Shown: positions 13,538-26,985, counted from the stretch's first letter. The stretch: DNA of 64,000 nucleotides from an uncultured Gammaproteobacteria bacterium (GCA_964407925.1 CAYOXM010000004.1:12389-76388), one strand, 5' to 3'. Made by a program: numbers and translations. Notes: generated by a model from the sequence alone, not told the origin.

Positions 13538-13924
13538 TTAAGCGATCTTGAGCACCTTCTTGATCTTGTCGACCGCCTCGGCGGGCACGAAATGCGCCTT
13601 GATGAGGTAGTCCACGGCGCCGTCCTGCAGGCCCTTCTCGATGTCTTCCTTCTGGCCGAGGTTGGTGAGCATGATGACCGGGATGTTCTTGGTCGTCTCC
13701 TGCTGCTTCAGTTGCCGAAGCGCCTCGAACCCGTCGAGCTTGGGCATGAGCACGTCGAGCAGGATGAGGTCCGGCAGCTCTTTAAGCGCGGCCTTGACGC
13801 CCTCCTCCCCGTCACGCGCGGTCACGACGGCGAATCCTTCGATTTCGAGCTTGGTCGCGTAAATGCCGGACAGGAACGAGTCGTCATCCACGATGAGCAC
13901 TTTCGCTTTTACGGCGTCTGCCAT
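13538..13924 (-). CDS. single-domain response regulator receiver (CheY/PilH-like)
   Basis: 128 aa; 'KVLIVDDD', 'DLILLDVLMP', 'IPVIMLTN' receiver motifs; no output domain. Embedded between pilB and pilC. Confidence 0.85.
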   Translation of the reverse strand: MADAVKAKVLIVDDDSFLSGIYATKLEIEGFAVVTARDGEEGVKAALKELPDLILLDVLMPKLDGFEALRQLKQQETTKNIPVIMLTNLGQKEDIEKGLQDGAVDYLIKAHFVPAEAVDKIKKVLKIA

Positions 13925-15705: not shown

Positions 15706-15999
15706 TTACCGCTGCGCCTCGCTCACGAAAGGGTTCGGGGACCCGGCGCCGCCGAGCGCGCGGACGGGAACGTCGCCGAACTGCTTGAGCGACTTATATT
15801 CGATGCGGTCGTAAATCTTGTCCTCGAGCGTCGTCGGCAAGGACAGCCGCGGCGAGCTCGGCGGCAGGGCCGCGTCGTCTCCGCTCGCCCGCGGGAGCAG
15901 CTTGTCTCGATAAAAATACAGCAGGACGACGACGATGATCGCGAGGATCGCGCCGAGGGCGAGGACTTGCTGCTGTTCTTTTTTCATCTTCATAGGCAT
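15706..15999 (-). CDS. small single-TM pilus-locus protein (PilP-like?)
   Basis: ORF 15706..16128; plausible start MPMKMKKEQQQ followed by a TM helix; start abuts the pilO stop. The upstream part of the ORF is R-rich noise. Confidence 0.5.
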   Translation of the reverse strand: MPMKMKKEQQQVLALGAILAIIVVVLLYFYRDKLLPRASGDDAALPPSSPRLSLPTTLEDKIYDRIEYKSLKQFGDVPVRALGGAGSPNPFVSEAQR

Positions 16000-16003
16000 C
16001 GGA

Positions 16004-16597
16004 TCACGGAGCCGGCGGCGGCGCGGCAGCCGCGTCGAGGTAATACGCGCGGAGGACGAGGCCGTAGTTGCCGCTCCCCGGAGTGAACACCACGGCCTGC
16101 ACGTCGAACACGCGGAGCGAACGCTCAAGGTCCATGAGGAAAAGCTTGAACTGTTCGTACGTCCCGCCCACGACGTTCACCGCCGAACGCACGGCGCGCC
16201 GGCCCGTCGGCGACATGACCTTCTCGTCAGGCACGGCGTCGACGGATACGAGCACGAGGTCGTGCGCCCGCGCGAGCGCGTCGAGCTGGACATAGATGTC
16301 AGGCACCCCCGGCTGGAGCGGAACGATAGCCTGCAGCTTCTCCTTCCTTTCGGGATTCAGCTTCTTGAACGTCTGCGCCGACGCGACAATCTGCTTCAGG
16401 TAGGCTTCGTCGTCGGCAATACGCTGCTCGATGGCCTTCGTGTCCAGTGAGCCTCCGGCCAAGAGCGGCCCGATTTTCGGCATGAAAAGCAAGAAGTACG
16501 CGGCGGCGAGATACGCGATCGCAAGCACGGCCGTGATGGCGGGCAGCGCCTTCACGAGTCCTTCCTTCGCCATTGGCTTGTTCTGGGTCTGCGCCAT
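16004..16597 (-). CDS. pilO: PilO-like pilus assembly membrane protein
   Basis: 197 aa, N-terminal TM then coiled-coil/periplasmic domain. Position between the pilN-like gene and pilB. Confidence 0.6.
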   Translation of the reverse strand: MAQTQNKPMAKEGLVKALPAITAVLAIAYLAAAYFLLFMPKIGPLLAGGSLDTKAIEQRIADDEAYLKQIVASAQTFKKLNPERKEKLQAIVPLQPGVPDIYVQLDALARAHDLVLVSVDAVPDEKVMSPTGRRAVRSAVNVVGGTYEQFKLFLMDLERSLRVFDVQAVVFTPGSGNYGLVLRAYYLDAAAAPPPAP

Positions 16598-17483: not shown

Positions 17484-18584
17484 TCATTCGATATCGCGCA
17501 TCGCGAGGCCGACCGTCACCGCGAAGCGCGGGCCGATCTCGTCGAGCACCGGCCGGAGTTCGTCGGAATACACGACGCGCGCCCAAGGGTCGCCGACGTA
17601 CGTCTTGGTGTTCAGCTGCTTCGCGAAAAAGCTCGCGAGCGCGGGAAGCGCCGACGCGCCGCCGGTGAGGATGATTTTCTCAATCGACTTGCCGGTCGAC
17701 TCACCGCCCTGGCCGCCGACGTACAGGTTCATCGAGTACTGCAGTTCGGTGAGCATCGGCGCGATGGCGGCCTCGAAAATCTTGGGAAGGCCCTCGCCGG
17801 GATACAGCGTCGAGACGCTCTTGATGTCGCACTTCATCTGTTCCGCCGCCTTCAGGTCCATCGAGAGCGTCTTCGCCATCGCGCGCGTGAGCGTCGCGCC
17901 GCCCATGTCGAGGCTGCGCGTGACGTACGGGATGCCGTTTTCGACGATGATGATGTTCGTCCGGACGGCGCCGACGTCGACGATCATCGAGGTCGCGCGG
18001 TCCTTGCCGATGAGCGAACGGATGAGCGCGAACGTCTCCGTCTCGAGGCTGACGAGCTCGAGGCCGGCCTGCTTGAAGACGGCGACGTACTTTTGCACCA
18101 TCGTCTTCGACGCTCCGGTAATCAGCACCTGCACCGTCTTCGGTTCGTCCTTCTTGTCCTTGTCCGCCGGCTTCGCGGCCTTGGCCTTCTCGCCGGGCGC
18201 GGTGATCGGCTTGAAGTCGAGCACCATCTCCTCAAGCGGCACGGGGATGAGCTTCTTGGCCTGCCACTGGATCGCCTCGCGAAGCTCCTTTTCGTTGCCC
18301 TTCGGCACGGTGATGACCGAACTGAAAACGGAAGCGATCGGCAAGCCCGCGATGGTACGCATCGTGCTCGTCTTCGCGCGCTGGACGATCTTGCGGAGCA
18401 GGTCAGCCGTTTCCTTCGGGGAATCGACGAGATTCACGGGCTGAACGTCGGGCATCCGTTCGGTGAAGCCGTACGTATGCAAACGCGCCCTCCCTTTCTC
18501 GTTCTGGAGCTCGACCAACTTCACGCCACCGGCGCCCAAGTCGACACCGAGATAGCTTTGCTTCTTAGGGCCGAAAAGTCCCAT
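17484..18584 (-). CDS. pilM: type IV pilus assembly protein PilM (actin-like ATPase fold)
   Basis: 366 aa; 'YLGVDLGAGGVKLVEL' sugar-kinase/actin-fold N-terminus typical of PilM. Confidence 0.85.
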   Translation of the reverse strand: MGLFGPKKQSYLGVDLGAGGVKLVELQNEKGRARLHTYGFTERMPDVQPVNLVDSPKETADLLRKIVQRAKTSTMRTIAGLPIASVFSSVITVPKGNEKELREAIQWQAKKLIPVPLEEMVLDFKPITAPGEKAKAAKPADKDKKDEPKTVQVLITGASKTMVQKYVAVFKQAGLELVSLETETFALIRSLIGKDRATSMIVDVGAVRTNIIIVENGIPYVTRSLDMGGATLTRAMAKTLSMDLKAAEQMKCDIKSVSTLYPGEGLPKIFEAAIAPMLTELQYSMNLYVGGQGGESTGKSIEKIILTGGASALPALASFFAKQLNTKTYVGDPWARVVYSDELRPVLDEIGPRFAVTVGLAMRDIE

Positions 18585-18681
18585 AGTTTCGTACCGTTCT
18601 CCGCTGATGAGTTACCACCTTAGAGTATACACTTTTTTGAGCCCGACGGGAACGACGCCGCCTTAAACGGTGGAAAACCCC

Positions 18682-21600
18682 CTATTGCGGCGCCGAATCG
18701 GCGAAAATAGGCAGAGTTTTGGTCACGTCGCCGAATCCCGGGGGCGGGTTCACGACCGCCCGACCGTCATACACGAACTGCTCCGAACCCTGCGTGACGC
18801 TCTTGTAGGAACGGCTCAGGTGGAACTGCCGCGCGACGATGAGGCCGTGGAGCGTGAACGGATCGGGACTGTCCGAGAGCGGCGGAGCGACGCTCCAAAA
18901 ACCGTCATCGCCGCCGACGTAGAACGCGCCGACGAGGTTCTTGACGGACCCGTCGACGTAGACGTTGCCTTTGGCGTTCGACCCGTCGTCGACGACGATC
19001 CACCCGAGCGACGCCAACTGACGGAGATCGGTGACGGTCGAGGTGTCGTAGAGGAAATCGCCGTTGACGTAGAGATTGCCGCCGTCGACGAATACCGTGC
19101 CGTTCCCCTTCGTGCCGTCGTTGTAAATCGTATGCGCGCCCACCGTGGCGTCGCCGACGACGCGGAAGACCTTCCCGCCCAGCCGGTTCGAGTAGGAATT
19201 GAGCGTCGCGTCGAGCTGGCCGGGAGGGACGTCGATGACCGTGCCGAACTTTCCGGCGCGAAGGCCGGCGAGGTCGAGCTTGCCGAGAACGGACGAGTAC
19301 GCGTTGCCCGATTTCGGCCGATCGAACTTCACCGTCGCGTTCGGTCCGGCGGCGCCGGCTGCGGCGAGCGCGTCACAGGTCTGCGCGCTGTTGAAGTTGA
19401 TGATCACGTCCTTCGCGGTGACGCAGAACGTGGCGTTGTACTGGTTCGCCGGCGGGACGTCCGGCGCGGTGATGCGCTTCTTTGAGAAGACGTTGCCCTG
19501 CAGCGTCTGGAGCCACGGGTAGAGCAGGTTTTCGCAGCGGTTTGCCCCGGTGCAGGCGGGAGACCCCATCACGTCCGTGCAATCGACGTCACGCTTGCAC
19601 TTCTTGATACCGTCCTGACACAACCCGTAGCCCGGGAAGCCCGGCGCGGTGCCGCCGTCCGTGCACTGCGTGTCATCGAAGCAGACCTGGCCGCCGATGG
19701 TGCAGAGCCCCCACGCCGGCTCGCAAACCTGCGGATCAACGTGGTCGGGCGGCAAGAGCGAATAATCCATGCCGATCGACGGGCCGGGACAGGGGTAATC
19801 GCACACTTCGTCGGAATCGCACTCGCAGACGATTTCGGTATCGATCCTGCACCGGCCGTACTGCTTGTTCGGTTCGCAGACGTCGCCCACGCCGTTCGCG
19901 TTCGCGTCCGTCTGGGAGGCGTTCGGCAGGCCAACGCAGTTATCGCACGCCTTCGGCGACGTGGAGTACACGGTCGTATAGAGCCCTTCGGAGGCGCCAT
20001 CAAGGTCAAAATCGGCGTAGGCGCAACCGTTTCCGGGATCCGGGTCGCCGGGACCGGGGACGTCGTTACAGACGAAAATCGCCTTGCGGTTCGACTCCAC
20101 GGTGTCGCCGTCGCTGTCGCGGACGCCGACTGTCACGTAATACATCCCGTCTGGAATGGCAGTCGGAAGCGACACCTCCGCCTGGCACTGCATGGTATTG
20201 CCCGTACCGCCGCCAATCAGCCCGACGAACGTCGCGGTCGGCGGTGGGACGGGTCCGGGCGGACCGCCGACGACGACGCCTGCCGGCGTACGAACGTACA
20301 CCTCGCACGGCTGGTTGAATGAGTCACCGGGTGCGGTAATGAAGTTTGCCGAAACGGTCGTCTTTAGATTACCCGTGCGGAAAAACGGCTTGCCGGGGGT
20401 GACCGTCAGGGCCGAGGTCAGCGCCGGCGTGAGGTTCACGGAAAACGCGGGCGCGGAAAAATACGCGCCGAGGTTGCCAGCGCCGTCCTCCGCGCGCGCC
20501 TGAATCGTCAGCGCCATATCGCTCGGAAACAGGAGGGGTGCCGTGAGGCAATCGGGTCCTGTCGGAAAAACGGTGCCGTTGATCTTCACGTCACAGCGGC
20601 AAATGCCCGACGAAAGGGGCGGCGCTCCCCCGGGATCGGTCGGGACCCCCCGAAACATCCGCATTTGCTGCGAGAGTGACGGGGCGACGCCATAGGGGAC
20701 GCGTATCGTGCCGCCCATGGCGGCTTCCGGTTCGACTTCGATGACCGTCGGGACCGTACTCTCGTACAAGGTAGTCGAAAAATTCACGTCGCCATATTCC
20801 GCGACGTCACCGGGCTGCTTGAGCATCGAAATGCTGATCGGGTAGTTCTTCGTCGCCGCGGGAGTCGCGGGCGTGGCGCAGGTCAGCGTGACGTCGAACG
20901 GTCCGAAATTCCCGCCCGGCGTGTTGTAGATCTGCACGGCGTGGCCGGCGACGGCGAGGAAGGTCAGCCGCGCGTGCGGCAGCCCCGTGACCGAATCCAG
21001 GAGCGTGCAGGTCGGGTTCGCCGCGGCGTACGGGTAATACTTCGCCGCGTCGGTGTTGTCGCCGACGATGATCGTAACCGAAGAATACGTCCCTGACCCG
21101 GTGAACCGGAGCACGTCGGTCGAAGACACGTGCGCAGCGACGCGGACGGTCGCGAGGACGGTGGGATTGTTGCTCGTGAACGCGGTCGGCGCGGTCGAGC
21201 GCGGCACGACCTGGCACGTCGCGTTCGTCCAATTCTTCGGCGCGCAGGTACCGACGCCCCAGCAGCTCGAGTCCGCGCAGTCGATCGCCGCATCCCCGTC
21301 GTTGTCCTTGCCGTCACCGCAGGACGATTCTCCCGCCGGCTGACAGGCCTGCAGCTCGGGACCGAGACTGCCCGCGCACTGGGAGTCCGCGCAATCGACC
21401 TTGGCGTCCGAGTCGTTGTCGAAGCCGTCGCCGCACTCGTCGTTCGTGTCCTCCGCCGTCGCGCACATCGCCGCATGCCCGAGACTGCCGAGGTTAGGCC
21501 TGTTCGCCGCCCCCGCGTCGGCGGCGCAGTCCGTCACGTCCGCGCAGTCCTTGATGACGTCAGTGTCGTTGTCGCTGCCGTCGGCGCAAGAATCGTACGT

Positions 21601-23007
21601 GACGTCCTCGCGCGACGGGCACGGCCCGCAATTGCCGAACTTCCGCTTGCAATCGGTATCCGCGCAATCCTGCGGCCCGTCACCGTCGTCGTCGAAGGCG
21701 TTGCCGCAGTACTGATAGCGCTGGCCGAGGTCGAATTCCTTGTCGTAACAGACCTTGGAGGTGTCGAGCGGGTTGACGACGCCCTTGCAGTCGGTGTCGG
21801 CGCAATCCGAAAGGTGGTCGAGGTCGTCATCGACGCCGTTGAAGCACTGCGCGTCGGCATCAACGCCTCCCGCCGTCTTGTTCTCGCTCGCGGGGCAGGC
21901 GGCGTTGCCGGCGCAATCGTAATCCAGGCAGCGGAGCTCGCCGCCCACGGTGATTTCGCCGCCGGTCAGCGGCGCGTTGTCCCACGAGGGGTCGTAGCTC
22001 TTGTCCTTGTCGTTGTCGATGAAATCGGAGCAGCTCGTCTCCGTGGCGGGGCAGCCAAAAGCCGTTTTCTTCCAACAGATGGTGTTGACGTTGCCGCCCG
22101 CCGTCACGTCGAAGACGTTATCGACGCAGTCGGAAAGGCCGTCGGCGTCGTTGTCGAACGCGTCGCCGCACGTCGTAAGGCCGGTCTCGTTGCCGAACTG
22201 GCAAAGCGCCGTGCCCGACGGCTGCCCGACCTTGTTGTTGCAGCTGCTGTCGAGGCAGTCCGGCTTGCCGTCGGCGTCGTTGTCGAATCCGTCGTTGCAG
22301 GTGTTCTCCGGCTGCTCGCAGAGCGCGCCGCTCCCGACATTGCCCGTCTTGCCGGAACACTGCACGTCGGCACAGTCGCCGCCGAAGTCGAGATCGTTAT
22401 CGATGGCATCGGCGCAGGGGAAATCCATGCCCGAAATCGCGCCCCACGACGTCGATTCGTCACCGTTCGACGGCGCGCCCGCGTCGACGTAGAACGTGAG
22501 CGTCTGGCCGCCCGTATCGCCGTTCTGGATGACGCTCAGGCTGAAGTCGTAGGAACCCGCGGCGAGGCCGGAGAACTTCACGCTCATCACCTGGTCGACG
22601 ATGCACCCGGCGCATCCGTCGTTGTCCTTGCGCTCATAGGCGGTGCGTCCCGGATTCACGTCCTCGAGCGGCAGGATGACCGCGCTGTTCGTCGGATTCG
22701 CGTACTTGTCCCAAGTCGTGAAGGCGGGAAGGTCGAACAGGATGTACGAGACGAGACCCGCGGTGCTGTACACGCCGCCGTTCAGACGGACCTTGAGTTC
22801 GCCGCTCGGCGAAAGATGCTGGGTGTACGAGTAGTTCACGGTCTGCCCGCCGACGACCATCGATCCGGTACAGACGTTGCCCGCGCAGGGCGTGCCCGAG
22901 ACGAGCGCGCGCGCCGGCATGGCCGAACGCGCGCCAAACCAGACGACCGTCGCGAGGACGAAGGCCGACATGATGCCGATGGCGGTGGCGCGCGGGGCGG
23001 TCCTCAT
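18682..23007 (-). CDS. giant secreted repeat protein (1441 aa) with 9 or more MopE/thrombospondin-type-3-like Cys-framed Asp-rich repeats; candidate pilus-associated adhesin
   Basis: Start at MRTAPRATAIGIMSAFVLATVVWFGARSAMPARA (signal peptide). Repeats CADAIDNDLDFGGDCADVQC, CNDGFDNDADGKPDCLDSSC, CGDAFDNDADGLSDCVDN, CFNGVDDDLDHLSDCADTDC, CGNAFDDDGDGPQDCADTDC, CADGSDNDTDVIKDCADVTDC, CGDGFDNDSDAKVDCADSQC, CGDGKDNDGDAAIDCADSSC; later a TSP3-like 'QTDANANGVGDVCE' and Cys-rich segments. Confidence 0.8.
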   Translation of the reverse strand: MRTAPRATAIGIMSAFVLATVVWFGARSAMPARALVSGTPCAGNVCTGSMVVGGQTVNYSYTQHLSPSGELKVRLNGGVYSTAGLVSYILFDLPAFTTWDKYANPTNSAVILPLEDVNPGRTAYERKDNDGCAGCIVDQVMSVKFSGLAAGSYDFSLSVIQNGDTGGQTLTFYVDAGAPSNGDESTSWGAISGMDFPCADAIDNDLDFGGDCADVQCSGKTGNVGSGALCEQPENTCNDGFDNDADGKPDCLDSSCNNKVGQPSGTALCQFGNETGLTTCGDAFDNDADGLSDCVDNVFDVTAGGNVNTICWKKTAFGCPATETSCSDFIDNDKDKSYDPSWDNAPLTGGEITVGGELRCLDYDCAGNAACPASENKTAGGVDADAQCFNGVDDDLDHLSDCADTDCKGVVNPLDTSKVCYDKEFDLGQRYQYCGNAFDDDGDGPQDCADTDCKRKFGNCGPCPSREDVTYDSCADGSDNDTDVIKDCADVTDCAADAGAANRPNLGSLGHAAMCATAEDTNDECGDGFDNDSDAKVDCADSQCAGSLGPELQACQPAGESSCGDGKDNDGDAAIDCADSSCWGVGTCAPKNWTNATCQVVPRSTAPTAFTSNNPTVLATVRVAAHVSSTDVLRFTGSGTYSSVTIIVGDNTDAAKYYPYAAANPTCTLLDSVTGLPHARLTFLAVAGHAVQIYNTPGGNFGPFDVTLTCATPATPAATKNYPISISMLKQPGDVAEYGDVNFSTTLYESTVPTVIEVEPEAAMGGTIRVPYGVAPSLSQQMRMFRGVPTDPGGAPPLSSGICRCDVKINGTVFPTGPDCLTAPLLFPSDMALTIQARAEDGAGNLGAYFSAPAFSVNLTPALTSALTVTPGKPFFRTGNLKTTVSANFITAPGDSFNQPCEVYVRTPAGVVVGGPPGPVPPPTATFVGLIGGGTGNTMQCQAEVSLPTAIPDGMYYVTVGVRDSDGDTVESNRKAIFVCNDVPGPGDPDPGNGCAYADFDLDGASEGLYTTVYSTSPKACDNCVGLPNASQTDANANGVGDVCEPNKQYGRCRIDTEIVCECDSDEVCDYPCPGPSIGMDYSLLPPDHVDPQVCEPAWGLCTIGGQVCFDDTQCTDGGTAPGFPGYGLCQDGIKKCKRDVDCTDVMGSPACTGANRCENLLYPWLQTLQGNVFSKKRITAPDVPPANQYNATFCVTAKDVIINFNSAQTCDALAAAGAAGPNATVKFDRPKSGNAYSSVLGKLDLAGLRAGKFGTVIDVPPGQLDATLNSYSNRLGGKVFRVVGDATVGAHTIYNDGTKGNGTVFVDGGNLYVNGDFLYDTSTVTDLRQLASLGWIVVDDGSNAKGNVYVDGSVKNLVGAFYVGGDDGFWSVAPPLSDSPDPFTLHGLIVARQFHLSRSYKSVTQGSEQFVYDGRAVVNPPPGFGDVTKTLPIFADSAPQ

Positions 23008-24674
23008 GGTTTTTTGGTCACGTCGCCCGTCGCCCCGCAGCACAGGTCGCCGGACTGCGCGCCGGGGGAGAAGCAGTCGTCGGTTCCGCTCGCGTTATAC
23101 TTCGCCGCGCTCGTGCAGTCGCAATCGAAGTACCCGTCGTTGGCGTCGCCGTAGCCGCACTCGAGCCCGTCGACGATCTGATGGAGCGCGGGCTGGGAAA
23201 TCGTCCCCTGCCGCGTGCAGCACAGCGTCCCGCTCCCGAGCACGTAGGCGGGATCGGAGCAATCGATGATGCCGTCGCCCGCCTGACCCCAGGTGCACCG
23301 CGTGCGCGGCAGCGTCTGGCCCGAACACTGGTAGGACACGCCCTTGCAATAACGGTCAGCACAGTCGACGTACCCGTTCCCGTCGTTGTCGATCGTGTCG
23401 GCGCAGTTGCCCTCGACGGGAATGCCGCGCCGCATCGCGAGCGCGAACGACGCGTCGCCGGTGAAGTCGCACTGCGCGGCGTTCTTGAAGTAGTTGTCGG
23501 GAAAACCCGCGTTGCACTTGATGGCGAGATACTGGTCCTGCTGGGCGTCGAGGCCGGTCCAGGTGTTGCCGTGCGCGAATACCGGCTTGCGCGACGTCGT
23601 GGCGTCGATGATTTCGCGGCACTTGCCCGCGACTTCGTCGCAAATCTCCGTTCCCGCGGCGCATTGCGCGTCCGAAACGCAGGCCGACCCGTTCGCGTAC
23701 CCGGCGATGAGGCATTTGTTCAGGTACCAGAGGCTGTTCTGCTGGATGTTGTCCGCCGCGACCACCGTGTAGTCGAGCGTCGTGGTGCTGCCGCGCACGG
23801 TCGAGGTCATGACCTTGTTCACGATGCGCTTCGACGCGTCAGGGAGCAGGATCTCGCATTCCAGAAACTGATTTACGGCGGCGGAAAAACCCTGGAAGGT
23901 CACGGACATCTTGTTCCGGTGGGTGCCGGGGTACGTGCACGTCCCCGCGACGGTATCGCACTTGAGGAGCGGCGGCGTCGTGCAGTTCGCGTCGCTCACG
24001 CACGGCGGCATCGCCGTCGCGGTCGGTTCGTATATGCCCTCGGGACGCCGGACGGTGCCGAGGTCCGCAAGCACCCACGACGTGTTGGCGATACTGAAAT
24101 CGATCCAACCAATGCCGGTGCCGTCGGAATTGCCGCTCCACGCCCAGTGGTCGCCCGCCGCGCCTTTGGTGAAGTTGCCGTTCACGTTGTTGAGCACGAC
24201 GTGGTAATTGGAGGTCACGCAGTCGTCCGCGCCGACGTCTTTGTCGCAATTCAGCGAAATCCAGCCGTTCGCGCCGAGACTGACCACTTGCGCCCATCCC
24301 CAGAACTGATCCTGTTTGGCGTTGAACGTGCCGCGGTACTGCGCGTACGGCGCGCCGCCCTCCGGCGTCGTGCCCGTGCAGGTCGTGCCGAAGCAGATCC
24401 ACCCCATCGTTTCCGACCACGCCCAGCCGGTGAGGTCGCCGCGATCGGGGAAGCCGGGGGCGTTATCGATTGCCAAACCGTAATCCGCCGTCGCACAAGT
24501 AGCGTCGTTCGTGCAGTTGAGCGAGACCCAACCGATGGTTCCCGACCACGCCCAGCCGGTGACGTTGTCGGAGGTACCGGCGAACGCGCCTTGCGCGGCA
24601 AAAAAAACTCCGGCGGTAACGCCCAGCATTACCGAAAAAAATCGTATGGCGGCTCCCTTAAAAATGGGTCCCAT
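23004..24674 (-). CDS. secreted repeat protein (556 aa) with 4x GWAWS...GWI(S/D)(L/F) repeats and one MopE-like motif
   Basis: Start MGPIFKGAAIRFFSVMLGVTAGVFFAAQGAFA (signal peptide). Repeats TGWAWSGTIGWVSLNC, TGWAWSETMGWICFG, FWGWAQVVSLGANGWISLNC, DHWAWSGNSDGTGIGWIDFS; CADTIDNDGNGYVDCADRYC. Stop overlaps the giant-protein start (ATGA). Confidence 0.75.
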   Translation of the reverse strand: MGPIFKGAAIRFFSVMLGVTAGVFFAAQGAFAGTSDNVTGWAWSGTIGWVSLNCTNDATCATADYGLAIDNAPGFPDRGDLTGWAWSETMGWICFGTTCTGTTPEGGAPYAQYRGTFNAKQDQFWGWAQVVSLGANGWISLNCDKDVGADDCVTSNYHVVLNNVNGNFTKGAAGDHWAWSGNSDGTGIGWIDFSIANTSWVLADLGTVRRPEGIYEPTATAMPPCVSDANCTTPPLLKCDTVAGTCTYPGTHRNKMSVTFQGFSAAVNQFLECEILLPDASKRIVNKVMTSTVRGSTTTLDYTVVAADNIQQNSLWYLNKCLIAGYANGSACVSDAQCAAGTEICDEVAGKCREIIDATTSRKPVFAHGNTWTGLDAQQDQYLAIKCNAGFPDNYFKNAAQCDFTGDASFALAMRRGIPVEGNCADTIDNDGNGYVDCADRYCKGVSYQCSGQTLPRTRCTWGQAGDGIIDCSDPAYVLGSGTLCCTRQGTISQPALHQIVDGLECGYGDANDGYFDCDCTSAAKYNASGTDDCFSPGAQSGDLCCGATGDVTKKP

Positions 24675-24691
24675 ACTCGTGCTTGAGTATA
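24675..24691 (-). promoter_or_regulatory. TATACT -10 box 11 nt upstream of the GWAWS-repeat protein ATG (leaderless or short-leader transcript?)
   Basis: Minus strand ...TTTTTCGTGCTATACTCAAGCACGAGT-ATG; no SD. Confidence 0.35.
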
Positions 24692-24694
24692 GCA

Positions 24695-24725
24695 CGAAAA
24701 ATAGCCGATTTCACGGCTATTTTTA
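24695..24725. terminator. rho-independent terminator after rnhA (perfect 11-bp stem)
   Basis: AAAAATAGCCG-atttca-CGGCTATTTTT; on the minus strand the hairpin is followed by TTTTTCG. It lies between the rnhA stop and the GWAWS-protein start. Confidence 0.75.
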
Positions 24726-24748
24726 CCCCTGTGGACAGTTTTTTCGCC

Positions 24749-25153
24749 TTACGACGAATGACGGTCGAGCGCCTCATTGACGAGCCGGTCGGCGTCCTTG
24801 TTTTTTTCCCGCCGAACGTGGGTGAAACGCACTTTTTTGAAGCCCAATTTCAGGTTATGGACGCGCATGAAGAGCGCCGCGATGCCGGGGTTGCGGACGC
24901 GGTACTCGCCGTTGAGCTGTTTTACGGCCAGCTCCGAGTCCATGTACATCTCGACCTCATCGGCACCGAGCTCCTTGGCATGCTCGAGTCCGTCGATGAT
25001 CGCCATGTATTCGGCGTAATTGTTGGTCTGGGTCCCGAGGAAGCGGCCGTGCTCCTTGAGGACGGTGCCGTCCTCGGCGGTAAGGTAGGCGCCGCAGGCC
25101 GCAGGCCCCGGATTGCCGCGGCTGCCGCCGTCGGTGTGAATGATGATTTTCAT
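24749..25153 (-). CDS. rnhA: ribonuclease HI
   Basis: Start MKIIIHTDGGSRGNPGPAACG (RNase H type 1 DEDD catalytic region: TDGGS..., EYMAI, NKDADRL). Confidence 0.85.
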   Translation of the reverse strand: MKIIIHTDGGSRGNPGPAACGAYLTAEDGTVLKEHGRFLGTQTNNYAEYMAIIDGLEHAKELGADEVEMYMDSELAVKQLNGEYRVRNPGIAALFMRVHNLKLGFKKVRFTHVRREKNKDADRLVNEALDRHSS

Positions 25154-25245
25154 TGGCTGAGGTTCAGAGCTTGAGGGTTCAGAGGTCAAAGGTTTACACG
25201 CTCTAACCTTTGAAGCTCTGAAACTCTACCCTTTTCTTCCGTCTG
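25154..25245 (-). repeat. intergenic imperfect-palindrome element B, abutting rnhA ATG and containing the recJ stop codon
   Basis: Plus strand: GAGGTTCAGAGCTTGAGGGTTCAGAGGTCAAAGGTT-tacacgctct-AACCTTTGAAGCTCTGAAACTCTACCCTTTTC. Long imperfect hairpin; recJ reads through it, and the TGA stop lies in AGGTCAAAGG. Confidence 0.7.
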
Positions 25246-26985
25246 CCGCACGTCGACAAGCTTGAGTTGGATTTCCTTGCGGCCGTTCCAGGCGTTGATG
25301 CCGATCTCGACGACCGCGTCGACGGTCATGCCGGGCATCAGCCCCTCCGCCTTTTCGACAAAATTAAAACCGATGAGCTTCGCCTCCTTGGGAAGGTCGC
25401 CGCGCGCGGTCATGCGGACGGTCTTGCCGTTCTTGCCGATCATGTCGACCGCGGAGAGCAGCAGGCCGCGGAGCAGGAATTTCGGCCGCGGGTTGCCCTC
25501 GCCGAAGGGTTCGAGCTTGGCAAGCCAGTCGACGAGTTCCCACGTCACCTGACTCATGCGGAGTTCCGCGTCGATGTCGACGACGGGACGCAAATCCTTG
25601 CCGGCGAGCTGCTCCTCGGCGTAGGCCTCGATCGCCGCGACGAACCCGCGGTAATTTTCCTCCCCCTCGATGGTGAGGCCGCAGGCTTGCGGGTGACCGC
25701 CGTAGCGCGCGAGAAATTTCTGCGCGCCGTCCATGCCGGCGACGAGATTGAACCCGGGGACGCTGCGCCCGGAACCGACGATATGCCCGTCGTCGTTGCC
25801 GAAGACGAACGCCGGAACGCCGAATTCGGCGGTGATCTTCCCGGCGACGAGTCCGACGATGCCCGCCGACCAGCCGTCACCGCAGACGCAGTGGACCTTG
25901 CGGCCCGGCGGCGCGGCGGCGACTTCGGCGCGCGCGGCATTCATGATCTGCTCGGTGTATTTCTGGCGGTCGCGGTTCACCTGGTCGAGCTTGGCCGCCG
26001 CGGCGGTCGCCTCCTCGTCGGTCTCGGCCATCAGGCACTTGAACGCGAGCTCGGCGTGCTCCATGCGCGAGGCGGCGTTGATGCGCGGTCCGATGGAGAA
26101 ACCGACCGACGTCGTGTCGAGCGAACCGAACTCGAGCCCCGCGACTTCGATCAGCTTGCGCAGCCCCGGACGCCGCGTCTTGTTGAGCACCACGAGGCCG
26201 TACCGCTCGAGCGTGCGGTTCTCCCCGACGAGCGGCATCACGTCGGTGACGGTCGCGATGGAGACGAGGTCCAGGAGCCACTTGTCGTACCCCGGCTCAA
26301 ACGGCGAGCCCTGCTTGGCGCAATACGCGATAAACCCGCAGGCGAACTTGAACGCCACGCCGACCGCGGCGAGCTTCTTGTACGGATACGTCTCGCCATC
26401 GACGAGCGGGTGCAGGATGACGCACTCAGGGATGCGTTCGGGAATCTGGTGATGGTCAACGACGATGGTGTCCATCCCCTTTTCCGACGCAAGCGCGATC
26501 TCGGCAGCGCAGCCGATGCCGCAATCGACGGTGATCATCACCCTGTTACCCGCGGCCGCGAGCGCCTCGACCGTCGCCGGCCGCACGCCGTAGCCTTCTT
26601 TTTCGCGATGCGGGATGTAGCTCGTGAAGAGCGACGGATCCTTGCCGAGACGTTTTGCCGCGTCACGGAAGGTGGTCATGAGCACGACCGAACCCGTCAC
26701 GCCGTCAGCGTCGTAGTCGCCGTGAATGACGACCTTTTCGCCATCACGAATCGCGCGCCAGACGCGCTCGCAGGCCCGTTCCATGTCGCGGAAAAGGTAC
26801 GGGTCGTGGATGTCCTGGCCGTAGTCAGGCAAAAGGAACTCGTCCACCGCTTCTTGCGTGGTGATGCCGCGGTTCGCAAGGAGCGCAAGCGCGACGGGAT
26901 GGATTTCGGGAAATCGGGCGCGCAGTTCCTCGGACGGAGGCGGCGCGACCTGCCAGCGGGATCGCATAACCCGTTCAGCATACAC
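25186..26985 (-). CDS. recJ: single-stranded-DNA-specific exonuclease RecJ
   Basis: 599 aa; DHH motifs (VIHGDYDADGV, DHH), DHHA1 domain. The C-terminal ~20 aa and the stop codon lie inside intergenic repeat element B. Confidence 0.9.
   Translation of the reverse strand: MYAERVMRSRWQVAPPPSEELRARFPEIHPVALALLANRGITTQEAVDEFLLPDYGQDIHDPYLFRDMERACERVWRAIRDGEKVVIHGDYDADGVTGSVVLMTTFRDAAKRLGKDPSLFTSYIPHREKEGYGVRPATVEALAAAGNRVMITVDCGIGCAAEIALASEKGMDTIVVDHHQIPERIPECVILHPLVDGETYPYKKLAAVGVAFKFACGFIAYCAKQGSPFEPGYDKWLLDLVSIATVTDVMPLVGENRTLERYGLVVLNKTRRPGLRKLIEVAGLEFGSLDTTSVGFSIGPRINAASRMEHAELAFKCLMAETDEEATAAAAKLDQVNRDRQKYTEQIMNAARAEVAAAPPGRKVHCVCGDGWSAGIVGLVAGKITAEFGVPAFVFGNDDGHIVGSGRSVPGFNLVAGMDGAQKFLARYGGHPQACGLTIEGEENYRGFVAAIEAYAEEQLAGKDLRPVVDIDAELRMSQVTWELVDWLAKLEPFGEGNPRPKFLLRGLLLSAVDMIGKNGKTVRMTARGDLPKEAKLIGFNFVEKAEGLMPGMTVDAVVEIGINAWNGRKEIQLKLVDVRQTEEKGRVSELQRLERVNL

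Follow-up and report, generated by a model that had tools for sequence, protein, structure and literature searches.

Two kinds of adhesive type IV pilus proteins offer the nearest analogies in role to the protein considered here, the non-pilin adhesins of the PilY1/PilC type and the modular pilins of Streptococcus sanguinis. PilY1/PilC of Pseudomonas, Neisseria, and Myxococcus, the known non-pilin adhesins of these pili, are encoded together with minor pilins and presumably use the C-terminus for docking and the N-terminus for binding. In S. sanguinis, the adhesion module is part of a pilin, a vWA module in PilB and a lectin module in PilC. We analyzed a 64-kb stretch of DNA (CAYOXM010000004.1:12389-76388, hereafter the window), in which a gene for a secreted protein of 556 amino acids (aa) with four tryptophan-rich repeats is followed on the minus strand by a gene for a 1441-aa protein (hereafter the giant), pilM, and further type IV pilus genes. 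The two proteins probably constitute an extracellular component of the pilus system. Tentatively, we favor a reading in which the 556-aa protein is the ligand-binding head of this two-part accessory.

Like PilY1/PilC, the window pair comprises large Sec-exported non-pilins encoded in a pilus gene cluster, with a conserved C-terminal domain, a differing N-terminal region of presumed binding function, and putative Ca2+-binding sites. Unlike PilY1/PilC, the window proteins are two polypeptides, they are encoded before pilM, and their C-terminal domain looks, from weak fold matches, beta-helix-like and not like a propeller. PilY1 itself was rejected as an identification, neither protein having a Pfam match to the PilY1 propeller family. 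The likeness to the S. sanguinis pilins lies in the grafting of an adhesion module on a pilus component, as seen also in two pilins, P0144 and P0236, which bear the repeat of the window protein. The window protein differs from them in its Sec-type A-x-A signal, and the identification as a type IV pilin or prepilin was rejected for it: no N_methyl match and no N-methylation motif were found, and the signal ends in AFA↓G.

The relation between the two window genes is apparent from their relatives. Proteins of about 630 aa align with the 556-aa protein over its first third only; beyond that stretch they carry acidic double-disulfide repeats and, at the end, a C-terminal domain of the giant's type (C-domain). 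P0085 and P0073 thus unite the N-terminal tryptophan-hairpin module (N-module) of the 556-aa protein, the acidic repeats, and the giant's C-domain in one chain, with residues 335-633 of P0085 matching residues 1121-1438 of the giant at 33% identity (E 2e-42). In P0070 (599 aa), an N-module 63% identical to that of the window is followed, with hardly any linker, by a stretch that shares 45% identity with the C-terminal ~340 aa of the giant. The fused form was found in 46 loci as one chain of 470-850 aa composed of a signal peptide, the Trp-hairpin module, acidic repeats, and an all-beta C-domain. A word-indexed homology search with the C-domain returned nine proteins, and BLAST detected the domain in 61 of the 267 proteins that had been fetched, nearly always in company with the N-module. 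The consensus of these 61 proteins ends in DGR...NPPPG..D..KSLP, and the giant likewise closes with a C-domain ending in DGR-x-x-x-NPPPG-x-x-D-x-x-K-x-LP.

It follows that one Patescibacterial protein has two constant ends, the Trp-hairpin module and the stretch that forms the final ~300 aa of the giant. Because fused chains occur in 46 loci and P0070 joins the two ends almost directly, the 556-aa gene and the giant are, by comparison of their sequences, a split and expanded version of it. The insert in the lineage of the window amounts to ~1400 residues; the first gene contributes its C-terminal 350 aa and the giant its first ~1100. Counted from the beginning of the N-module match through the whole C-domain match, the span ranged from 1.2 to 6.3 kb, hence the intervening length varies several-fold. 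A first-pass annotation of this DNA had proposed that the 556-aa protein is partnered with the giant; the occurrence of both as one polypeptide in other lineages makes the partnership stronger than claimed. The window pair belongs to this unnamed family: a Sec signal and a four-hairpin module are present, the C-domain lies in the coupled gene, and pilM follows directly downstream.

The two genes are also coupled at the level of sequence, as the first-pass annotation had stated. The ATG of the giant at 23007 is shared with the TGA of the 556-aa gene (...AAAACC ATGA GG...), an overlap kept in 16 of 25 related split loci, the remaining ones having gaps of 0-12 nucleotides (nt). The giant begins with a signal/transmembrane segment and continues with acidic double-disulfide repeats and the C-domain; it matches the family NF033662 with 124 bits in nine stretches and is a member of it. 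For the C-domain no Pfam match was obtained. Its predicted core is all-beta, with a predicted local distance difference test score (pLDDT) above 90, and a Foldseek search with the model gave weak beta-helix matches to ice-binding proteins of the DUF3494 type (3wp9, E 0.016; 6bg8, E 0.06; template modeling score 0.15-0.36) and also to pectate lyases.

The second line of evidence is genomic position. On the minus strand of the window the order is recJ, the RNase H gene, the 556-aa gene, the giant, pilM, PilN-like, PilO-like, a 140-aa open reading frame (ORF), pilB, a response regulator, pilC, a pilin gene, pilD, and more pilin-like genes; four pilin-like proteins are encoded at 12147-8313. Eight related contigs were examined gene by gene; four carried the split pair and four the fused protein, in each case directly before pilM and in the same arrangement as in the window. 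A wider scan based on full-length alignment, with one genome per species and classification by tblastn, covered 79 loci, nearly all from Patescibacterial metagenome-assembled genomes (MAGs; Parcubacteria, Uhrbacteria, Buchananbacteria, Komeilibacteria, Minisyncoccota). Twenty-six were split, 46 fused, and seven unclassed, mostly on truncated contigs. Wherever the sequence extended far enough, pilM was found downstream on the same strand (16/16 split and 41/41 fused loci, 57/57 together), and the first-pass description of a two-gene unit that runs into the pilus locus was thereby supported. The spacing between the C-domain match and the following pilM match, measured end to start, was 87 nt in the median and 10 nt at its shortest.

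Such an arrangement may partly reflect inherited gene order. If so, the 556-aa protein could be a general surface or surface-layer (S-layer) type protein with no role in the pilus, and its repeat a generic module for surface display. In the window's own clade the conserved order indeed reaches the housekeeping genes LepA, RecJ, and RNase H, thousands of other surface proteins share the repeat, including some from outside Patescibacteria (Desulfobacterales), and pilM has a TATACT-like element of its own. Nevertheless, recJ was found upstream in 16/16 split but only 10/41 fused loci, whereas all 41 fused loci keep pilM, which argues for a link to pilM beyond a frozen genome order. The C-domain was seen only in proteins at the pre-pilM position, and the 10 nt that may separate its match from that of pilM also speak against a mere neighborhood. 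We consider a surface protein unconnected with the pilus quite improbable.

The N-module itself, 170 aa at the mature N-terminus, consists of four repeats, which hold 12 of the 16 Trp residues of the 556-aa protein; three of the four bear an N-C...C disulfide loop. An independent 33-aa repeat profile, built from 66 units of other, non-pilus proteins (consensus GYAWSENIGWISFSCANTGVCGTVDYGVSLDGG), recovered the same four copies, the third and fourth only in part because of their longer hairpin loops, and did not detect the repeat in any other ORF of the window. An AlphaFold2 model made with the homologue alignment was compact (mean pLDDT 90, predicted template modeling score (pTM) 0.84), with the blocks of the N-module mostly at pLDDT 76-97. 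Every repeat was modeled as a beta-hairpin, with a strand xGWAWS, a turn, and a strand GWIxF; the predicted order after the repeats is a beta-sandwich at ~250-367, two helices, and the Cys-rich end.

No chain in the PDB matched this model at E<=1e-3 in Foldseek, the best being partial Ig-like matches of the middle domain (E 0.02-0.1), and the viral structure library gave nothing meaningful. A comparison of the profile with PDB sequences returned chance-level matches only, e.g., a dinoflagellate light-harvesting protein (E 0.4-0.7). The first-pass annotation had raised a beta-propeller or a solenoid for the repeats; the confident model resembles neither among PDB structures, and the propeller was rejected. 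Family comparisons were done as searches of hidden Markov models against sequences. The Pfam-A scan of the 556-aa protein at E<=1 gave zero families, and the NCBIfam scan the acidic repeat NF033662 alone. CW_binding_1, CW_binding_2, GW, WG_beta_rep, and KWG were accordingly rejected at the level of family-profile matches, for multi-repeat relatives as well, which matched no Pfam or NCBIfam repeat model. The repeat thus remains without a name, as in the first-pass annotation, and no known-family assignment emerged. Short aromatic-rich beta-hairpin repeats are common to the N-module, CW_binding_1, and designed tryptophan-zipper hairpins, and the W-x-W ... W-x-F spacing across a tight turn presumably resembles cross-strand Trp pairs. 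Unlike CW_binding_1 and the zippers, the Trp-hairpin unit is longer (33-50 aa), contains a disulfide loop and a third strand, and has no fold match in the PDB.

The repeat is widespread. A profile of the N-module (17 sequences, residues 33-215) was compared with 1.84 billion representatives of 50% identity clusters and yielded 7062 matching proteins at E<=1e-3, or 3426 under the stricter threshold of E<=1e-10. In many of them the repeat was multi-copy, with up to 12 stretches; the proteins measured 120-3269 aa, the longest a Desulfobacterales protein from outside Patescibacteria. Among 85 repeat proteins encoded outside pilus operons, the partner domains were Ig-like (22), PKD (13), fn3 (8), LamG (4), MopE (3), TSP3 (2), and dockerin (2), and no enzyme domains were found. 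Two of the 85, P0144 (651 aa) and P0236 (435 aa), are type IV pilins with a class III signal peptide and a leader of the G↓FTLIE type, carrying two to three Trp-hairpin units at the C-terminus, i.e., modular pilins. The 69 full-length relatives of the 556-aa protein (33-87% identity) belong to Patescibacteria, Parcubacteria, or Uhrbacteria; all are annotated as hypothetical, and none has a precomputed Pfam domain. Alignment of 64 homologues revealed 48 invariant columns, including the hairpin Trp and Gly residues, 17 Cys, and the linker motif RPxGxYEP.

Three further occurrences of the repeat were recorded. P0219 (461 aa) joins the second half of a Trp-hairpin module to PilM (49% identity to the window PilM over 281 aa), probably through a frameshift or a gene-calling artefact. 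Matches of tblastn to ~100 aa of the N-module in L069 (10076-10375) and L085 (1533-1847) have no pilM, pilB, pilC, or C-domain within 5-10 kb and presumably come from other members of the wider repeat family.

On these grounds we propose that both products would assemble outside the membrane into one complex working with the type IV pilus system. The C-domain of the giant would dock the complex to the pilus machine or filament. None of the proteins fetched from outside this family carries it, which makes it the likelier docking end. Acidic repeats and Ig-like modules would make up a stalk that varies in length and owes its stiffness to Ca2+ and disulfides. As the distal head, the Trp-hairpin module would probably bind a glycan or another structure on the surface of a partner cell. 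It is the likelier ligand-binding end because it is common to pilins and to adhesin-like proteins without enzyme domains and lies at the far end of the variable stalk. The first-pass annotation had suggested carbohydrate or surface binding, a plausible role that agrees with the other contexts of the repeat.

Several observations weigh against a ligand-binding head. In fused loci, the median identity to the window was 36% for the N-module and 33% for the C-domain, compared with 44% for PilM, 47% for PilC, and 51% for PilB. The N-module is thus conserved only slightly less than PilM, whereas more variation might be expected in the head of a receptor-specific adhesin; a conserved ligand and a structural role would account for this equally well. 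The gene adjoins pilM and not the minor pilins, the pilin-borne repeats number only 2/85, and the whole LepA-RecJ-RNaseH-X-pil order is kept in the window's own clade, so the synteny is in part inherited gene order.

The same conservation, near that of core machine proteins, would suit a structural envelope part at the base of the pilus, comparable to PilQ, TsaP, or PilP. Such a part would anchor the machine or guide the filament through the cell wall or S-layer without a secretin, its module binding the cell's own wall polymer. Aromatic beta-hairpin repeats such as the choline-binding repeats are typical wall-binding modules, which counts for this explanation. So does the finding that, wherever the sequence sufficed (57/57 loci), a single copy heads the pilM-pilN-pilO operon, with pilM often no more than 10-30 nt away. 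Moreover, PilQ is missing from the type IV pilus loci of the Candidate Phyla Radiation (CPR; PMC6744442). On the other hand, type IV pilins bear the same repeat, and a wall-binding module on them would impede extrusion of the filament, hence anchoring of the module to the own cell wall is disfavored. No match to secretin, LysM, SLH, CW_binding, or any other wall-binding family was found in Pfam or NCBIfam, and a secretin (PilQ/GspD) was rejected for the giant as well. A stalk that ranges from almost nothing, as in P0070, to more than 1000 aa would be odd in a part of the fixed envelope, and the protein is left without a membrane anchor once its signal peptide is cleaved. A part of the pilus base is therefore judged unlikely.

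A third explanation assigns the exposed Trp residues to stacking on bases, the protein being the DNA receptor of a competence pilus that passes DNA to the uptake machinery in place of ComEA. A role in DNA uptake has been proposed for CPR pili, and no more than 31% of CPR genomes have an annotated ComEA (PMC6744442); recJ and the RNase H gene adjoin the locus in the window. The N-module is nevertheless strongly acidic, with an isoelectric point (pI) of 4.05 and 17 Asp and Glu residues against 5 Lys and Arg, which makes DNA binding unlikely. The whole mature protein (pI 4.4) and the giant (pI 4.1) are likewise strongly acidic. No DNA-binding family was matched in Pfam or NCBIfam, and most fused loci have no link to recJ. 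This explanation appears very remote.

The favored reading of a pilus-associated ligand-binding head can be extended further. In this extension, the Trp-hairpin module would be a new fold and the mark of a large unrecognised family (more than 7000 clusters at 50% identity), and the protein would be a Parcubacteria-wide type IV pilus component through which episymbionts recognise a host or partner; the split form would carry the head as a separate subunit on a giant stalk. We regard this combined proposal as doubtful.

The features of the locus are collected in Table 1.

Table 1. Coordinates of the features of the 556-aa gene, its partner, and their surroundings, counted from the first nucleotide of the window.
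Feature	Position	Strand	Basis
Gene for the 556-aa secreted Trp-hairpin/Cys-rich protein	23004..24674, stop included	(-)	ORF and 69 full-length homologues
Sec-type signal peptide, residues 1-32, predicted cleavage AFA↓G	24579..24674	(-)	A-x-A↓G pattern
N-terminal Trp-hairpin module, residues 33-205, four repeats	24060..24578	(-)	alignment, repeat profile, model
Repeat 1, residues 38-52 (VTGWAWSGTIGWVSL)	24519..24563	(-)	profile match 40-71, E 2e-13
Repeat 2, residues 81-95 (TGWAWSETMGWICFG)	24390..24434	(-)	profile match 83-103, E 2.5e-8
Repeat 3, residues 122-141 (QFWGWAQVVSLGANGWISLN), long hairpin loop	24252..24311	(-)	partial profile match 137-144, E 5e-4
Repeat 4, residues 174-193 (DHWAWSGNSDGTGIGWIDFS), long hairpin loop	24096..24155	(-)	partial profile match 188-198, E 1.3e-3
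Linker motif RPxGxYEP, residues 210-217	24024..24047	(-)	64-homologue alignment
Predicted beta-sandwich region, ~residues 250-367, boundaries approximate	23574..23927	(-)	secondary structure of model
Acidic double-disulfide (MopE-like) repeat, residues 422-447	23334..23411	(-)	NF033662 match
Cys-rich C-terminal region, residues 448-556	23007..23333	(-)	Cys positions
ATGA stop/start overlap of the 556-aa gene and the giant gene	23004..23007	(-)	sequence
Gene for the 1441-aa giant: signal/transmembrane segment, acidic double-disulfide repeats, conserved C-terminal domain	18682..23007	(-)	NF033662
C-terminal domain of the giant, ~residues 1160-1441	18685..19530	(-)	homology to fused relatives
pilM	17484..18584	(-)	Pfam PilM_2, E 3.9e-41; giant ends at 18682
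Terminator-like 11-bp hairpin AAAAATAGCCG-tgaaat-CGGCTATTTTT, 3' of the RNase H gene	24697..24724	(-)	sequence and fold
Promoter-like GTGAAA-17-TATACT with TG extension, 12 nt 5' of the ATG	24686..24714	(-)	sigma-70-like consensus

The coordinates of the first-pass annotation were right, and its description of a secreted, Cys-rich protein with four repeats was confirmed by the signal pattern, 32 Cys in the mature protein, and four profile copies. The gene lies on the minus strand, from the ATG at 24674 to the TGA at 23006-23004. The plus-strand frame over the same interval has no stops but contains zero repeats, and the protein quoted earlier corresponds to the reverse-complement frame. A GC content of 0.85 at third codon positions supports a real gene; the window has 65% GC overall. 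Along the window the GC content varies between 58 and 69% (mostly 62-67%), which is high for a Patescibacterium.

The N-terminus reads MGPIFKGAAIRFFSVMLGVTAGVFFAAQGAFA, with predicted cleavage before GTSDNV, and displays a basic n-region, a hydrophobic core, and an A-x-A site. Since the same pattern directly precedes repeat 1 in the window protein and in 39/39 homologues displayed, the protein is most likely exported by Sec and cleaved; with such a signal peptide, a lipoprotein was rejected. In the linker, R210, P211, G213, and E216 are invariant in the 64 split-type homologues, and the motif is absent from the fused proteins. A four-Cys 'knob' insertion (CVSDANCTTPPLLKCDTVAGTC, residues 222-250, ~23927-24011 on the minus strand) occurs in 14 of these 64 and is doubled in two of the 14.

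The single MopE-like motif reported earlier was recovered as well: CADTIDNDGNGYVDCADRYC matches NF033662 with E 5.6e-8, the whole-protein score of 32.4 bits staying under the cutoff of 41 because only one copy is present. This acidic repeat probably binds Ca2+ and weakly resembles the C-rich domain of teneurin-4 (7plp, E 0.22, profile against PDB sequences). Compared with the acidic double-disulfide proteins (NF033662, Pfam Cu-binding_MopE, the teneurin C-rich domain), the motif accounts for little of the 556-aa protein and does not define it; the giant has nine. In the Cys-rich end, 11 Cys are invariant or nearly so across the 64-homologue alignment.

Upstream of the gene, the first-pass annotation had placed its own promoter close to a terminator. 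The TATACT match does stand beside a hairpin, which it overlaps and runs just past. The 61-nt stretch with this hairpin folds with a minimum free energy of -16.6 kcal/mol, a centroid energy of -12.7 kcal/mol, and a z score of -2.2, and the hairpin was not among the matches of a consensus terminator scan. As a promoter it is a weak candidate: the site is a single consensus match, the sole sigma-70-like one in the 7 kb of 18300-25300, where 0.9 is expected by chance. A second TATACT element, aaaaaagtgTATACT, lies at ~18620-18640 (-), within the 97 nt that separate the giant from pilM, so a promoter of its own is possible for pilM as well.

Within the pil genes, a single-domain response regulator (13538-13924, minus strand, Response_reg E 2.7e-25) lies between pilB and pilC, and a gene of the same size and domain was found at this position in 7/8 related loci, not in L008. 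The 140-aa ORF between the PilO-like gene and pilB (15706-16128, minus strand) has no family match; most related loci carry an unannotated ORF of 85-130 aa in the same slot, and L008 one of 438 aa. No pilT or second ATPase of the T2SSE family and no tRNA genes were found in the 64-kb window. L013, L015, L017, L020, and many other loci come from MAGs titled 'uncultured Gammaproteobacteria' (one each Binatia, Vicinamibacterales, and Chlamydiae), although the locus is typically Patescibacterial; these titles look like placeholders or binning errors.

In the literature on CPR pili and on the repeat motif we found no description of this protein family. The main text of Meheust 2019 lists pil genes, this family not among them, and the 'Pam pilus' of a 2026 preprint is a different, donor-strand-exchange system. 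The family is new and uncharacterised, and its general kind is recognisable as that of an extracellular, pilus-associated, adhesin-like protein.

A large part of bacterial diversity belongs to the ultrasmall Patescibacteria (CPR), whose cultivated members spend their lives attached to other microbes. Type IV pili are regarded as central to this attachment, and no factor for recognition of the partner cell is yet known (PMC6744442; PMC12206443). A pre-pilM protein that combines a binding-type module with a family-specific domain is a testable candidate for the contact with partner cells, and its essential parts can be read from the naturally occurring fused, split, and 'mini' forms. Naming the repeat, which current domain libraries miss, would annotate thousands of hypothetical surface proteins.

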